The position numbers and the translations under genes are program-made. From assembly GCA_963707635.1 (NCBI GenBank), contig OY970173.1, forward strand, positions 1,216,001 through 1,280,000: a DNA stretch of 64,000 bases, in the 5' to 3' direction. The stretch comes from Candidatus Latescibacterota bacterium. Lineage in GTDB: Bacteria; Krumholzibacteriota; Krumholzibacteriia; WVZY01; JAKEHA01. Numbering within the stretch: position 1 is the first letter of the stretch; every line of letters begins with the position of its first letter. Below the pieces are notes generated by a model. The model saw only the letters and a program-made list of their open reading frames with translations, did not search any database and had not been told where the DNA came from. Below are positions 1,033-7,001 of this stretch, piece by piece.

Positions 1033-1872
1033 TCACTCCTGCCGCCACGGCGGATCCATGACGCAGCGGAATCCTATGTAGACCCACCGCTTGCCCGGTG
1101 ACGTGCTCTCGCGGTTGGCGCAGCGCAGGTACTTCGGAAACGTGTTCCAGGAGCCGCCGCGGTACACGCGCCGGTTGCTGCTGAACTGCTCGTTGCGATC
1201 CGGAATCCCGCGTGGAAGGACGTCGTTCGGGCCCCGTGGATAGGCTTCGTACTGATCGCTCACCCATTCCGCCGCGTTGCCCGCCATGTCGAAACATCCG
1301 TACGGACTCGTTCCCGACGGGAAGCTCATGACCGGCATGAGCCGGTCGGAGTTGTTGGCGCGGACGCGGTCGAAGCCCTCGCCCCAGGGGAACTCGCGCC
1401 CGTCGGTGCCCCGCGCGGCCTTCTCCCACTCGGCCTCGGTCGGCAGCCGCTTGCCCACGAACCGCGCGTACGCGGCCGCTTCCTCCCAGGTGATGCTGAC
1501 GATCGGCAGCCCGTCTTCGCCGATGCCGTAGCTCCCGTCGAGCCATTTGGGCGGGGCTTCCACCTTCATCGAGTCCATGTAGGCTTTGTACTCGGCGTTG
1601 GTCACTTCGTGGATGTCGATATAGAAATCGTCGACCCACACGTGCCGCTGGGGAAACTCGTCGACCTCGGCCTGCGTGCCAGTTCGGCGCGCCGAACTGC
1701 CCATCAGGAACTCACCCGCGGGAACGAAGACCATGTCCTGGACGGTCGGAACCGGGTCGGGCCGAAACGGTTGCGAAGACCCGGCCGGGGGGTCCGCCGC
1801 CCCCCGGTTCGCCTGCCCGATGGCGGCGCAGAGGAAGGCGGAGACGGCCAACAACAGGAGGACGGGTCGCAT
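1033..1872 (-). CDS. SUMF1/FGE-sulfatase domain protein, exported
   Basis: Signal peptide; motifs FLMGS, HEVTNAEY, RLPTEAEWEKAARG, DMAGNAAEW, RGGSW, GFRC. Confidence 0.9.
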   Translation of the reverse strand: MRPVLLLLAVSAFLCAAIGQANRGAADPPAGSSQPFRPDPVPTVQDMVFVPAGEFLMGSSARRTGTQAEVDEFPQRHVWVDDFYIDIHEVTNAEYKAYMDSMKVEAPPKWLDGSYGIGEDGLPIVSITWEEAAAYARFVGKRLPTEAEWEKAARGTDGREFPWGEGFDRVRANNSDRLMPVMSFPSGTSPYGCFDMAGNAAEWVSDQYEAYPRGPNDVLPRGIPDRNEQFSSNRRVYRGGSWNTFPKYLRCANRESTSPGKRWVYIGFRCVMDPPWRQE

Positions 1873-1954: not shown

Positions 1955-2053
1955 CCGTAATTCATCGTTCGTGTTATGGAGTCGGAACGGGTCACCGGAC
2001 TCCCGACGCCCGGCGTCGGCCGCCAGGCAATGGGTGGTGCACGGGTTGGGCCT

Positions 2054-2095
2054 AAAAGACTGGAAGGCAGCGCATCTTTCGACACGCTGCCTTCC
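2054..2095 (-). terminator. Intrinsic terminator-like hairpin
   Basis: Minus strand GGAAGGCAGCG-UGUC-GAAA-GAUG-CGCUGCCUUCC followed by AGUCUUUU; GNRA loop. Confidence 0.6.
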
Positions 2096-2258
2096 TCTGG
2101 TGGGGACTAACTGAAAACGACGCGTTTTGGGACTAGGGACGCCGTTTCCTCTTCCTGACTTGGCTTTGCGATAAATTCTGTGAAGCCGATACCGTCCGCC
2201 TCAACCCATCCTAGTATCCGAACGGTTGCCGCATGTTCTTCCCACGGTACCGGCTTCG
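2054..2258 (-). ncRNA. Candidate ~200-nt small RNA divergent from lysR
   Basis: Promoter at 2265-2293; 14-bp 5' stem GAAGCCGGUACCGU/ACGGUAUCGGCUUC with a G-U pair on this strand; terminator at 2054-2095; no credible ORF. Confidence 0.55.
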
Positions 2259-2261
2259 AGG

Positions 2262-2312
2262 ATCAATATAGATCGGGTCTTGATATGCGTAAAATAGAAA
2301 ATGTATATTCTA
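2262..2312. promoter_or_regulatory. Divergent promoter region with LysR-type dyads
   Basis: AT-rich island. Minus-strand TTTACG-N17-TATATT (2293-2265); dyads ATCAA-N13-TTGAT (2262-2284) and TAGAA-N8-TTCTA (2295-2312, contains T-N11-A). Confidence 0.55.
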
Positions 2313-2328
2313 GTTATAAGAAAAACAT

Positions 2329-3255
2329 ATGGCAGCCATCAACCTGAATCACCTGTTCTATTTCTACGAGGTCGCCCGTCACGGGAGCTTCACGCGGGCG
2401 GCGCGCGAGCTGCTGGTGTCCCAGTCCGCGTTGAGCGTACAGATCAAGTCGCTCGAGACCTCGCTGGGAGCCGCCCTCTTCGACCGCCGTCGCGCCGGCG
2501 TGTCCCTCACGGACGCGGGCCAGCGCGCCTTCACGGCTGCCGAACGGATTTTCGCGGACGTCGATCAACTGGTCGCCGATTTTCGCCAGGACGGCCGGCG
2601 CCTCCCGGGGACGGTGAACGTCGGGACGGTGAACAGCATCGGGATCTACATGCTCCCGGACCTGCTGACCGCGTTTCGGACCCGGTACCCGGATGTTCGC
2701 GTCCGTCTCGACTTCCGCGAGTCCGAGCGGGTGATGGATCAGCTCTACCAGGGAAAAACCGACCTCGCCCTCGTGCCCTGGCAGCGCGCGTATCCCGACC
2801 TCGCGCCGACGGTCCTGACACGACAGAAGCTCTTTCTGGTGGCCCCGCCCGATCACCCGCTGGCGGGTGCGGAAACGCTCTCCCCCCACGACCTCGAGGG
2901 GCACTCGTTCGTGGGGTACCACGAAGGCATGCACACCCGGGCGATGATCGACGCGCTGTTCAAACGCATGTCGCTCAACGTGGAGTACTCCATCGAGTCC
3001 TCCAACGCGGCGACGATCAAGCAGATGGTGCTGGCGGGGATGGGGATCGCTTTCCTGCCCGAGATGGCGGTGGTGGGCGAGTTGCGGCGCGGGCACCTCG
3101 TGCGCCTGGACGTGCCACCGCTGGTGATGCACCAGGACGTGACCCTCTATGTGCGTCGCAACCGCGCGCTCTCGCGCACGGCGACCGATTTCGTGAGCTT
3201 CCTGCAGGAATACTTCGACACGAAGAAACGGGTTTCGGAGAAGCGCGGGCACTGA
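2329..3255 (+). CDS. LysR family transcriptional regulator
   Basis: N-terminal wHTH (GSFTRAARELLVSQSALSVQIKSLE...LFDR) and a LysR substrate-binding domain. Confidence 0.95.
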   Translation: MAAINLNHLFYFYEVARHGSFTRAARELLVSQSALSVQIKSLETSLGAALFDRRRAGVSLTDAGQRAFTAAERIFADVDQLVADFRQDGRRLPGTVNVGTVNSIGIYMLPDLLTAFRTRYPDVRVRLDFRESERVMDQLYQGKTDLALVPWQRAYPDLAPTVLTRQKLFLVAPPDHPLAGAETLSPHDLEGHSFVGYHEGMHTRAMIDALFKRMSLNVEYSIESSNAATIKQMVLAGMGIAFLPEMAVVGELRRGHLVRLDVPPLVMHQDVTLYVRRNRALSRTATDFVSFLQEYFDTKKRVSEKRGH

Positions 3256-3553: not shown

Positions 3554-4621
3554 ATGCGCATCCTCCACACCGCCGACGTTCACCTGCGCAGCGCCCGCGA
3601 CGAGCGCTGGGAGGCCCTCGGCGCGGTGCTCGACGTCGCGGCGCGGGAGCACGCGGACGTGCTCGCCATCGCGGGGGACCTATTCGACCGCGACGTCGAC
3701 GCGCACGCGCTCAAGACCGAGTTGCGCCGGCGCTTCGAACGCTTTCCCGGCCGCGTGGTGCTCATCCCGGGGAATCACGACGACGGCGGCATTCGTCCCG
3801 GGGATTTCTTCGGTGCGAATGTCCACGTGCTCGCCGGGCACGACCTGGTGGCCGACATCGGCGGCGTGCGCTTCGTCGGCGTGCCGTTCGAGGATGTCGG
3901 CGCGGACGAGACGCTGCGGCGCCTGCGCGACGCGGCGAAGCTCCGGGCCGAGGGCCCCAACGTGCTCCTCTTCCACGGCGAGTTGCTCGACGTCTCTCCC
4001 CTGGGCGGCGCGTACGGCGACGAGGAAGGGCGCGACTACATGCCCGCCCGGCTGGCGGATCTCGGCGAGCTCGGTTTCGACTACGTGCTCGCGGGCCATT
4101 TTCACCGCGCCCACGACGTGCGCGCGTGCGGCCGTGGCTACTTCGTGTATTCCGGGTCGCCGGTTTCCATCACGCGCCGCGAAACCGGGTGCCGTCACGC
4201 GAACCTCGTGTCGATCGGGAGCGCGCCCGAACCCGTCGCGCTGGACACCCACCACTACCAGGCCATCGACGCGCGCCTCGCGCCGGACGACGCCGAGCAC
4301 CCGCTGGCCCGCATCGAGCGCGAACTCTCGGGTGCCGACCCGCGCGCCCGCGTGCTCATGTCGATCCGGGGCTTCACCGATCTCGAGAAATGGGGACTGC
4401 GCGAGAACGAATTCCACGCCGCGCTCAAGGTGCTGGTGGCGCGCTTCAACGTCGAGACGCTCGACGCCGGCGAGTGCCTGGACGTGACCGGGATCGTCGA
4501 AGGCGACCTGTTTCGCCGCTTCGCCGCCCGGCTGGAGGACTCGGCGCTCCCGGAGGACGAACGCGCGCTGGTGCGCGAGATGGCCATCCGTGCCATGATG
4601 GAGGTGCCGGGTGCACGTTAA
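3554..4621 (+). CDS. Mre11/SbcD-like (YhaO-type) metallophosphoesterase nuclease
   Basis: Motifs HTADVH, AGDLFD, IPGNHD, LFHG, LAGHFH, YSGSP; overlaps the start of the SMC-like ATPase. Confidence 0.9.
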   Translation: MRILHTADVHLRSARDERWEALGAVLDVAAREHADVLAIAGDLFDRDVDAHALKTELRRRFERFPGRVVLIPGNHDDGGIRPGDFFGANVHVLAGHDLVADIGGVRFVGVPFEDVGADETLRRLRDAAKLRAEGPNVLLFHGELLDVSPLGGAYGDEEGRDYMPARLADLGELGFDYVLAGHFHRAHDVRACGRGYFVYSGSPVSITRRETGCRHANLVSIGSAPEPVALDTHHYQAIDARLAPDDAEHPLARIERELSGADPRARVLMSIRGFTDLEKWGLRENEFHAALKVLVARFNVETLDAGECLDVTGIVEGDLFRRFAARLEDSALPEDERALVREMAIRAMMEVPGAR

Positions 4622-7001
4622 GCGCGTCGTCGTGTCCCGCTACGGACCGCTCGAGCCGATCGACGCCTCCTTCGCGCCGTTTACCGTGGTGCACGGCCCC
4701 AACGAGAAGGGGAAGACGCTGCTGCTCGACGCGCTCCTGCGCATGTTCTTCAAGGACGAGCTCAAGCGGCACGTCAAACTCTTCGGCAATCTCTCTCGCG
4801 TCTCGGAGACCCCGGAAGGGTACGTGGTGGTTGCCACCCACGCGGAGGAAGTCAAACTCGCCGCCGACGCCACGCTGGCGACCGTCGCGCCCTCGCCGAT
4901 TTCCCCCGAGGATTTTCGCAACGTGTTCCTGATCCGGGACAGCGACCTCGACATCCACAACGAGACCGCATACTACGGCCGCGTCACCGAGCAGCTCTGC
5001 GGCACGCGGTCGCGGCAGATCGAGAAGATCCTCGCGGCGCTAAAGATATTGGGACGCCTGCGCAGCGCCACCCCGGACAGCGTGCTTACCAGGAGCAAGG
5101 GCACGCGACGGGTCGGCGAACGCCTCGAGACCGCGGAGGCGCTGCTCGACGAGATGAACGCCGCGCGCACCCGCCTCGACGCGGTGGGGTTCGACGCCGC
5201 CGATCGCCGGCTGGTGGACCGGGTCGAGCGCCGGGCGCAGCTCGAAGTCGAGCGCGAGCGGTTCCGCGCAGCGGAACGGCGGGCACGCTTCCTCGACGCG
5301 CGTTCGATCGTGGCCGCGGCGCGCGAACGTCTGGATGCGCTGGCGCCGCTCACACGCCTCGACGAACGCGACCTGGCGTCGTGGAGAAGAATTGCGGCGG
5401 AGAGAACAATGCTTTCGACCGACATCGAGCGGTTGGAAGGCAATCGCGTGAGCATGGCGGGCCGGGTGGAGGAAGCGCGGGCGTCGCTCGAAAAGGCGCG
5501 CTCCGCCGTGGCGGGGGTCGAGGCACGGCGGGATGCCGCGCGCTCGGAGATCACGCCCGCGTTGGAACGGTGGCTGCGCGACCGCGACGCGCGCGAACGG
5601 GACGAACGCGCCGCGCCGGCCCGTCTCGGAGCCATGATCGCGGCGGCGGTCATCGGCGCGGCCGCGGCGATCCTCGCCTTCGTGATCCGGGAGCCGTTCG
5701 TCGTGGGTGCGGTGGTGGCGTGCGCGGCGGTGGCCGGCGCGTTCGGCTTCGTGCTCTGGCGCGCCGGCCGCGAGCGAGCCGCATTCACCGTTCGCGGGCG
5801 CGACCTCGAGGCCACGGCGCTGCGGCTGGGCTTCGCGGTCGCCACCAACGACGCGCTCCCCGACGCGGTGGCATTCCTGCAGACCGAGCTCGAGCGCGAG
5901 CTGGACCGCGCGCGCGACGCGGAGGCAGCGGTGCGCGCGATCGAGGGCGAAGTGGCGGCGCGCGTGCAGGAACAGGACGCCCGCCGCGCGCGGGTGCAGG
6001 AGCTGGCGGTGGAGGAAGCGACCATTCGCGGGGAATGCGGGTGCCCGTCGATCGACGCGCTGGAGGCGAGCATCGGAGAAAAACGAAAACTGGAGGCCGA
6101 GGTCGACGCCAAGCTGGTCGCGTTGCGCGCGACGCTGCCGTCGGTCGGCGAGCGCCAGCCGCCCGCCGCCCTGGTCGCGTTCGAGCGCGAGATCGAACGG
6201 CGCCTGGCCGAGATCGCGGACGCGGGTGTCCCCGACGATCCCGACGCATCGGCGGCGACCGAGCAGGAACTCGCGCACGTGGTCGAAGAGGAGCGCGCGC
6301 TCCGGCGCGCGCTGGAACAGGGGCGCCACGATCTCAAGCACATCGAATTCAAGCTCGCCGAACTGGGCGTCCTCGACGAAGCGCCGCGCTGCCGGACCGC
6401 GCGGGAACTGTCGATGCTGGGCGATCGGGTCCGGGAGTTCTGCGAGGCCGTGCGCCGCGACCAGCGCCTCGCCCACGAAGCGATTCGGATCTTCCAGGAG
6501 CTCGACGCCGAGGAACGCGAGCGCGTGGGCGAACTCTTCGGCGAGGGGTCGATGGTGTCGAAGTGGTTTCACGAGATCACCGACGGACGCTACCGGGCGG
6601 TCTACTTCGACGCGGAAAACGGGGAGGTCGAGGTGGAGCGCGCGGACAGGAAGCGCCTGCCGGCCGCGTCGCTCTCCGGCGGGGCGTTCGACCAGCTCTA
6701 CCTCGCCATCCGGGCGAGCATCGCGGAACGGATGCTTCCGGAGTCGAAGGGCTTCTTCCTGCTGGACGATCCCTTCCTCAAGGCGGACCGCGAGCGACTG
6801 CGGACGCTCATGCGGATGCTGCGCCGTCTGGTCGAGCGGGGGTGGCAGGTGATCTACTTCACCGCGAAGGACGAAGTGGTCGACGCGCTCGAGGCGGACG
6901 CCCGCGCGGGCAACGTGTCCATCATCGAGTTGGAACGCCCGCTGTTCGCGCGGCCGCTTCCGCAACCGCCGCAGCGGCCGGACCTGCCCGGTCTCTTCTA
7001 G
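4611..7001 (+). CDS. Rad50/SbcC-like (YhaN-type) coiled-coil ATPase with two central TM helices
   Basis: Walker A GPNEKGKT, long coiled coils, signature LSGG, Walker B FLLDDPF, hydrophobic hairpin around residues 340-385. Confidence 0.85.
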   Translation: MHVKRVVVSRYGPLEPIDASFAPFTVVHGPNEKGKTLLLDALLRMFFKDELKRHVKLFGNLSRVSETPEGYVVVATHAEEVKLAADATLATVAPSPISPEDFRNVFLIRDSDLDIHNETAYYGRVTEQLCGTRSRQIEKILAALKILGRLRSATPDSVLTRSKGTRRVGERLETAEALLDEMNAARTRLDAVGFDAADRRLVDRVERRAQLEVERERFRAAERRARFLDARSIVAAARERLDALAPLTRLDERDLASWRRIAAERTMLSTDIERLEGNRVSMAGRVEEARASLEKARSAVAGVEARRDAARSEITPALERWLRDRDARERDERAAPARLGAMIAAAVIGAAAAILAFVIREPFVVGAVVACAAVAGAFGFVLWRAGRERAAFTVRGRDLEATALRLGFAVATNDALPDAVAFLQTELERELDRARDAEAAVRAIEGEVAARVQEQDARRARVQELAVEEATIRGECGCPSIDALEASIGEKRKLEAEVDAKLVALRATLPSVGERQPPAALVAFEREIERRLAEIADAGVPDDPDASAATEQELAHVVEEERALRRALEQGRHDLKHIEFKLAELGVLDEAPRCRTARELSMLGDRVREFCEAVRRDQRLAHEAIRIFQELDAEERERVGELFGEGSMVSKWFHEITDGRYRAVYFDAENGEVEVERADRKRLPAASLSGGAFDQLYLAIRASIAERMLPESKGFFLLDDPFLKADRERLRTLMRMLRRLVERGWQVIYFTAKDEVVDALEADARAGNVSIIELERPLFARPLPQPPQRPDLPGLF

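Follow-up and report, generated by a model that had tools for sequence, protein, structure and literature searches.

We report here a non-coding RNA of ~205 nt, encoded on the minus strand at positions 2054..2258 of the window (the whole stretch of 64,000 nucleotides that was analysed) and divergent from a gene for a LysR-type regulator of 308 aa (2329..3255, plus strand; Pfam HTH_1 + LysR_substrate). The assignment is based on conservation, covariation and RNA-library contigs, and both ends are putative. Comparative sequence data indicate that the element is a real RNA family, which belongs to no known family and whose mechanism we infer. We regard it, with a probability of about one half, as a conserved stand-alone, LysR-controlled, Hfq-independent base-pairing sRNA. 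The first-pass annotation had described a structured sRNA, transcribed on its own and divergently from a LysR gene, and this description is supported by order-wide conservation, covariation, a fixed spacing of the LysR boxes and a changing downstream gene.

Distribution of the RNA and the Divergent lysR

Orthologs of lysR were searched in 61 genomes, 36 of them in the same order of Ca. Krumholzibacteriia, and were present in 33 of these 36 (47-75% identity); outside the order, the best strong matches reached at most 33% identity, i.e. they were other LysRs. Upstream DNA was present for 28 of 30 lysR loci and contained the element in all 28 cases; two further sequences were added for the alignment. 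Within the order, a model of the sequence alone, made from 22 sequences and liable to miss distant homologs conserved only in structure, detected the element once per genome (full or cut by a contig end) in 33/36 genomes, including three (G021, G025, G032) held out of all alignments. Among 114 further genomes of the class, the same search gave five weak matches (E at least 0.003) and no strong one, and no second copy of the RNA was found in the source genome (G000). Among the three genomes of the order without the element, G001 has a contig that ends inside lysR, and G008 and G029 possess neither the RNA nor the lysR ortholog. The motif pattern matched 15 of 208 genomes of the phylum, all inside the order. 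Metagenomes added at least 15 true homologs among the 120 pattern matches listed, the remainder being due to chance, and lysR was divergent in 10/10 of the homologs with enough flank. A single viral match to the pattern was rejected as chance. In every case where a contig shows both, the RNA is divergent from the same lysR.

The element had been called unannotated, and this status holds: no family of Rfam 15 (including GcvB, OxyS, AbcR, CsrB and riboswitches) matched it at E<=10. Eleven homologous loci compared with Rfam yielded only a sub-threshold match in the terminator region (CC3552, 40.9 vs 50 bits). The source genome encodes 6S RNA (72.5 bits) and tmRNA elsewhere, and the element is neither. 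No non-coding RNA is described for the lineage in the literature searched, which comprised few subscription papers and main texts without supplements; the element could already figure in the supplements of papers on ncRNA discovery.

The LysR protein reached none of the NCBIfam subfamily cut-offs among the 25 matches listed, the best being LysR_Sec_metab (184.5 vs 250 bits). Among proteins of solved structure, a regulator of a Rubisco operon is closest to it (E 4.9e-33), and the AlphaFold model of the LysR protein is of low quality in its C-terminal half (mean pLDDT 66.7). A tRNA-Sec is encoded at G000:C1:1667450-1667544; together with the fact that the best, sub-threshold NCBIfam model is a selenium-metabolism LysR, this points at best weakly to sulfur or selenium as the signal. 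Many genomes of the order also encode a second, distant LysR (G000:C1:1195622-1196551; L031-L036), separated from the first by a few kb up to 40 kb. At several loci of family f2, its gene is followed by one for inositol monophosphatase, and the opposite strand encodes myo-inositol-1-phosphate synthase; this locus is likely a control unit of inositol synthesis. The lysR gene divergent from the RNA is followed at positions 3554-7001 by genes for a metallophosphoesterase and an SMC/AAA-like ATPase, a pair which we take to be SbcD/SbcC-like; it is also present in several relatives, and rmuC in others.

Structure and Covariation of the RNA

The 5' domain (2182..2257, minus strand) is closed by stem P1, in which positions 2257-2244 pair with 2195-2182. 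This 14-bp stem had been proposed from one sequence, and covariation backs it. The terminator (2054..2095, minus strand) was likewise found as described, with a hairpin at 2095-2062 capped by a GAAA loop and a short U-tract to 2054. Compared with shuffled sequences, the minus strand folds with z -3.93 and the plus strand with z -2.16. Once the terminator is removed, the RNA does not fold better than its shuffled versions (z -0.28), and thus the support for the 5' stem comes from covariation. A covariation check at orthologous lysR loci had been recommended with the proposal, and P1 and the terminator both covary in the 30 sequences: P1 is 96.9% paired with double (compensatory) changes in 9/13 pairs, and the terminator is 91.3% paired with a compensatory change in 12/15 pairs. 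For the whole named structure, 94.2% of cells are paired and double changes affect 22 of 32 pairs. Covariation in P1 and the terminator was above all 500 shuffles, a comparison in which kin sequences can beat shuffles and the tested structure was derived from the source genome's own sequence; slid registers gave 31-47%.

The inner CAACC/GGUUG helix proposed for the 5' domain was abandoned, as it is 54.5% paired and 394 of 500 shuffles are equally good. The conserved fold in this region is the hairpin GCGG-CAR-CCGY (96.7% paired, one double change only), which corresponds to a RUG-CGG-CAR-CCR motif (2222..2234, minus strand) readable as a start codon followed by Arg-Gln-Pro.

Further 3', a purine motif CAGGA-(N0-2)-RGGRAA (2144..2157, minus strand) is formed by columns at least 90% conserved in the 30-sequence alignment A1; it is mostly predicted to be paired (mean unpaired probability 0.38). 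In family f1 only, the predicted fold includes a hairpin (2113..2149, minus strand) with the C-rich loop CCCUAGUCCC (2138-2129). The heptamer UAGUCCC, reported to occur twice, is indeed present at 2135-2129 and 2109-2103, but its double occurrence is restricted to the source genome (1/30). The related CUAGUCC is found in 20 of 30 sequences, all of family f1, with an unpaired probability >0.7 in 15 of the 20. The invariant part, which the first-pass annotation had missed, adjoins the terminator: the string GUCCCCACC(R)G (2097..2107, minus strand), a candidate seed, is constant in A1 (30/30), and GUCCCCACC also occurs in the two held-out homologs for which DNA was extracted. Its mean unpaired probability is 0.62; for family f2, pairing with the purine motif is a frequent prediction (unpaired probability 0.18-0.64).

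Promoter and LysR Boxes

The sigma-70-type promoter proposed for the RNA, TTTACG-N17-TATATT, is present at 2265..2293 (minus strand), and its -10 element is conserved (TAnnnT in 32/32 sequences). Identity of the spacer is 58%, vs 98% for the invariant motif. LysR-type dyads had been noted over this promoter, and three T-N11-A boxes proved to be conserved. Box 1 (2317..2329, ATA-N9-TAT here), which is likely the LysR recognition site, is centred near -65 of the RNA start and kept in 31/32 sequences. Two overlapping boxes that adjoin the -35 (2295..2316) are kept in 31/32 (2316-2304) and 32/32 (2307-2295) and are likely activation sites. Other T-N11-A offsets in this AT-rich region score 0-18 of 32. 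The boxes stand at a fixed distance from the RNA promoter, and the lysR start is 0 to >200 nt away. From the established layout of LTTR promoters, LysR likely binds these boxes and activates from them.

A promoter PWM scored 46.3 at the locus vs -3.0 at the best other locus in G000, and 48.3 vs 6.6 for the next best in the fetched 2.4 Mb of G031, both genomes being among those from which the PWM was built. The RNA may therefore be the main output of its LysR, with no second good promoter match in the genome; further LysR targets may be missed because the PWM is self-built and LTTR sites are degenerate.

On the plus strand, a promoter-like site for lysR, TTGATA-N18-TATATT (2280..2309), overlaps the RNA promoter and is a match to the consensus only. 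This lysR promoter-like site ends ~20 nt before the ATG, no Shine-Dalgarno is seen at 2309-2331, and box 1 overlaps the start codon, which suggests that the lysR mRNA is near-leaderless and autorepressed. In L016 and L017 (family g4), short repeats that resemble CTCTGC[TC]GCAGCG, ~200 nt in all, separate the lysR start from the LysR boxes.

Transcription

A small share of positions 1800-2600 was represented in ten RNA runs, and the 8 runs examined (5 studies) were selected because they contain sequence from this region. Contigs of these RNA libraries, which do not show strand or ends, lie over the RNA in 8/8 runs with 98-100% identity. For example, a contig at 2101-2193 matches without differences, and others lie at 2036-2211 (3 differences) and 2069-2243 (1 difference, 1 gap). 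Within 1850-2480, the contigs of X3 and X7 cover nothing else. Two contigs bridge the RNA promoter (2127-2359, 2237-2387), and those of X2 and X5 also cover flanking DNA. As the contigs are unstranded and DNA carry-over is possible, they are a weak hint of transcription.

Candidate Seed and Search for Targets

UAGUCCC had been put forward as a seed for pairing with GGGA-rich ribosome-binding sites. This role holds only in part, since the motif does not occur outside family f1 and the target site predicted as its best is kept in 0/28 orthologs. That site, the RBS of a SAM-hydrolase gene (best match of the loop motif, -28 kcal/mol), was rejected for lack of conservation in these 28 orthologs. 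The order-wide candidate seed is GUCCCCACC. It is a poor anti-SD, because its complement is GGUGGGGAC and not the AGGAGG Shine-Dalgarno. Matches to the seed complement plus ATG are scattered across 13 genomes, and a junction pattern of the rplA/fabV type was rejected as a target since it was found in only 6 of 35 genomes. The tmRNA of the source genome (G000:C1:2830533-2830904, minus strand) holds the same GUCCCCACCGG string in sense, probably by chance.

We then compared G000 (2688 called genes) with 63% of G031, a genome of the other family (1934 genes). The 898 reciprocal best hits, of which 606 had concordant starts, cover at most a third of the G000 genes. Start calls were usable, because true SD words are strongly shared near starts (GGAGG, 60 vs 22.5 expected, p=3e-19). 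Ranking of seed duplexes over the 606 ortholog pairs placed 3 in the top 5% of both genomes, where 1.5 were expected. Words complementary to the seed were shared near the starts of G000 and G031 no more often than by chance, and upstream regions and aligned CDS positions of the two genomes showed no clear excess of the seed complement. Duplexes of the purine motif gave 5 top-5% pairs vs 1.5 expected, loose and with no exact-match support, an excess that we read as composition. Thus, no conserved mRNA target for GUCCCCACC was found in the 606-896 ortholog pairs of two genomes. The test is blind to at least two thirds of the genes, to lineage-specific transporters and to short imperfect pairings, and so it lowers the base-pairing hypothesis and does not remove it.

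Comparison with Known sRNAs and Proposed Mechanism

Like known LysR-divergent sRNAs, the element has a conserved divergent lysR with LTTR boxes over the sRNA promoter, as well as its own promoter and an intrinsic terminator that are independent of the downstream gene. GcvB shares its size and place, being an sRNA of ~200 nt divergent from the regulator gene gcvA in the accessible text of PMC9299463. GcvA is also LysR-type (NCBIfam). However, our RNA differs from GcvB by a C-rich candidate seed, no Rfam match and no Hfq found here, which GcvB uses, and our LysR differs from GcvA (126.6 vs a cut-off of 288). GcvB has a two-terminator layout and a G/U-rich seed. OxyS/OxyR has the LysR-divergent sRNA layout too; our LysR is not OxyR (107.7 vs 329 bits), and the RNA has no Rfam match.

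Two other systems resemble the RNA in their C-rich motifs. The AbcR1/2 sRNAs of Rhizobiales, with LsrB/VtlR, share a tandem T-N11-A promoter and a C-rich loop plus C-rich linker. The available portion of PMC8844928 presents the AbcR1 promoter as LysR-activated with tandem T-N11-A, and places one C-rich motif of AbcR in the loop of a hairpin and the other in a segment between stem-loops that is ultraconserved. The AbcR motifs CUCCUCCC and UUCCCCUC are true anti-SD, whereas GUCCCCACC is not. Also, there is no sequence match to AbcR, and our RNA is longer and single-copy, has an extra covarying 5' domain and occurs where Hfq was not found. LhrC of Listeria and similar UCCC-seed sRNAs share C-rich motifs in the loop and in the linker before the terminator; as far as the consulted part of PMC8079631 goes, LhrC consists of a hairpin, a single strand and a terminator, with UCCC in loop and linker, and pairs with mRNAs independently of Hfq. 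Our RNA has no homology to LhrC, and its loop motif is limited to family f1. LhrC is multicopy, shorter and under the control of a two-component system.

A search for hfq and csrA had been suggested in the first-pass annotation, and neither gene was found in 6/6 genomes that carry the RNA (80-96% complete in the case of the Hfq search). ProQ was not found in G000. Two matches to the KH_KhpA-B family are present, KhpA and a second KH protein.

We favour an Hfq-independent base-pairing sRNA because the layout matches the descriptions of LhrC and AbcR and the divergent arrangement of GcvB. We hypothesize that the LysR protein activates the RNA gene from the tandem T-N11-A boxes, its binding and the sign of its effect being deduced from their position. 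The RNA would then act in trans, the invariant C-rich GUCCCCACC pairing with G-rich sites of mRNAs, and the C-rich hairpin loop would add a second pairing site in family f1. Pairing would proceed without Hfq, possibly with the help of KhpA/KhpB-type proteins, and its outcome would be repression. KhpA/KhpB are reported as sRNA binders in Fusobacterium in the accessible part of 10.1101/2023.10.30.564711. The proposal of a LysR-controlled regulatory RNA thus stands as regards the divergent lysR and its conserved boxes, but LysR control itself and base-pairing are steps that we infer.

Alternative Explanations

The main rival to a base-pairing sRNA, which we consider unlikely although worth serious attention, is that LysR induces an RNA that binds a protein, as a decoy or a scaffold. 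The purine motif and GUCCCCACC, which flank one variable hairpin, would jointly form one protein site and the CGG-CAR-CCG hairpin a second one. This is consistent with conserved motifs that stand on either side of a variable hairpin and often pair with each other in the predicted folds (GGA with UCC), with a sequence that is itself fixed beyond mere pairing, with the empty target searches and with the KH-domain proteins encoded. However, the pairing of purine motif and seed is 83.6% paired with no double changes (calculated for one register, the shorter GGA/UCC register being left out), the motifs occur singly, unlike the repeats of CsrB, CsrA was not found in the six genomes searched and the 6S RNA is another locus.

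The second alternative arises from the 5' domain. The statement that the element has no credible ORF is correct in that no long ORF exists, and a micro-ORF of 7 codons (MRQPFGY, 2234-2211) located behind GGGAAG had been overlooked. In 46 sequences, it starts with ATG (37), GTG (6) or another triplet (3). A small protein gene was rejected, as the length varies from 6 to >60 codons, the reading frame is not kept and all three frames are used. It is rather improbable, but conceivable, that the RNA senses translation or has a dual function: ribosomes would start at the caged RUG and read Met-Arg-Gln-Pro, their occupancy or pausing would open P1 and set the fold or lifetime of the RNA, and the peptide beyond four residues would be irrelevant. 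Of the 46 sequences, 43 keep the RUG, 6 related ones having switched from AUG to GUG; in the 43, changes in codons 2-4 are synonymous only (CAA/CAG, and one CCA that breaks the hairpin), counts that are not independent because the sequences are kin. An SD-like GGGA precedes the RUG in family f1, and in f2 the spacing from RUG to the 3' strand of P1 keeps one frame in 16/20 sequences. Against this, the start codon is missing in three homologs, two of which retain a hairpin, many f2 copies have no SD, every change is a simple A/G transition, and the ORF occurs in all three frames within f1. Also, CGG is nearly invariant although the commonest Arg codon is CGC, as a constraint at the RNA level predicts. 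In its boldest form, which we hold to be decidedly improbable, the LysR-induced RNA would be a ribosome-read sensor and not a conventional mRNA-pairing sRNA: start codon and Arg-Gln-Pro would be caged in the 14-bp stem, translation of the micro-leader would open the 5' domain and control fold or survival, and the invariant 3' motif would then act in trans without Hfq, ProQ or CsrA.

The third alternative concerns the neighbouring gene (1033..1872, minus strand; SUMF1/FGE domain, Pfam PF03781), which lies outside the unit. A cis-acting leader, riboswitch or attenuator, of this gene is very improbable, and is largely refuted by gene context. SUMF1 is indeed co-oriented 3' of the RNA in 22 of 32 genomes (contigs end in 2), and the U-tract is weak in the source genome, where two RNA contigs extend past the terminator to 2036. 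But the RNA is intact in the 8 genomes in which SUMF1 is missing behind it, several of which have a convergent gene (dipeptidase or TPR), and as the downstream gene varies, the RNA is not the SUMF1 leader. In addition, Rfam gave no riboswitch match. The promoter-like element that the first-pass annotation had assigned to SUMF1 itself was recovered as a conserved upstream element in 15/15 same-genus sequences, and a second hairpin ~30 nt beyond the terminator, usually with a U-tract, would act as a further terminator in 14 of these 15 sequences, the source genome being the exception. The 3' end of the RNA may therefore vary. A 12-nt box CCGACTCCATAA (~1975-1986, minus strand; L002-L015) is located just 5' of the SUMF1 promoter-like element in 15/15 same-genus sequences and occurs once in G000; it is possibly a regulator site for SUMF1.

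It is highly improbable that GUCCCCACC is invariant because it pairs over 9 bp with a universally conserved stretch of the 16S rRNA, by which the RNA would contact the ribosome. This site is the best seed duplex in 16S+23S (-18.7 kcal/mol) and no mRNA target was found, but the match is not significant, as an equally good duplex is formed by 9 of 100 shuffled seeds. The complementary 16S site is presumably already paired in the mature 30S.

Finally, the CsrB-type likeness that had been suggested fails, and a sponge of the CsrB/RsmZ type, which we give hardly any credence, is effectively refuted for the genomes tested: two GGA motifs in ACAGGA context are conserved (those at 2155 and 2149, 27/30 and 26/30) and some Krumholzibacteriota carry CsrA homologs, few of them predicted functional (PMC13443453, in its accessible text), but CsrA was not found in the six genomes carrying the RNA, the conserved GGAs are mostly predicted to be paired and outside loops, and the seven GGAs, correctly counted before, are at chance level (4.6 expected, P=0.14).

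Significance of the RNA Family

Our data describe a new and well-supported family of RNAs from an uncultured phylum, in which RNA and transcription factor have stayed together over ~50% protein divergence. The LysR-divergent layout already has precedents. If the RNA is a base-pairing sRNA, this design arose again independently and runs without the usual chaperone. It would then represent a compact and portable module, made of one protein, one promoter and one RNA, for Hfq-free regulation and for the role of KhpA/KhpB.
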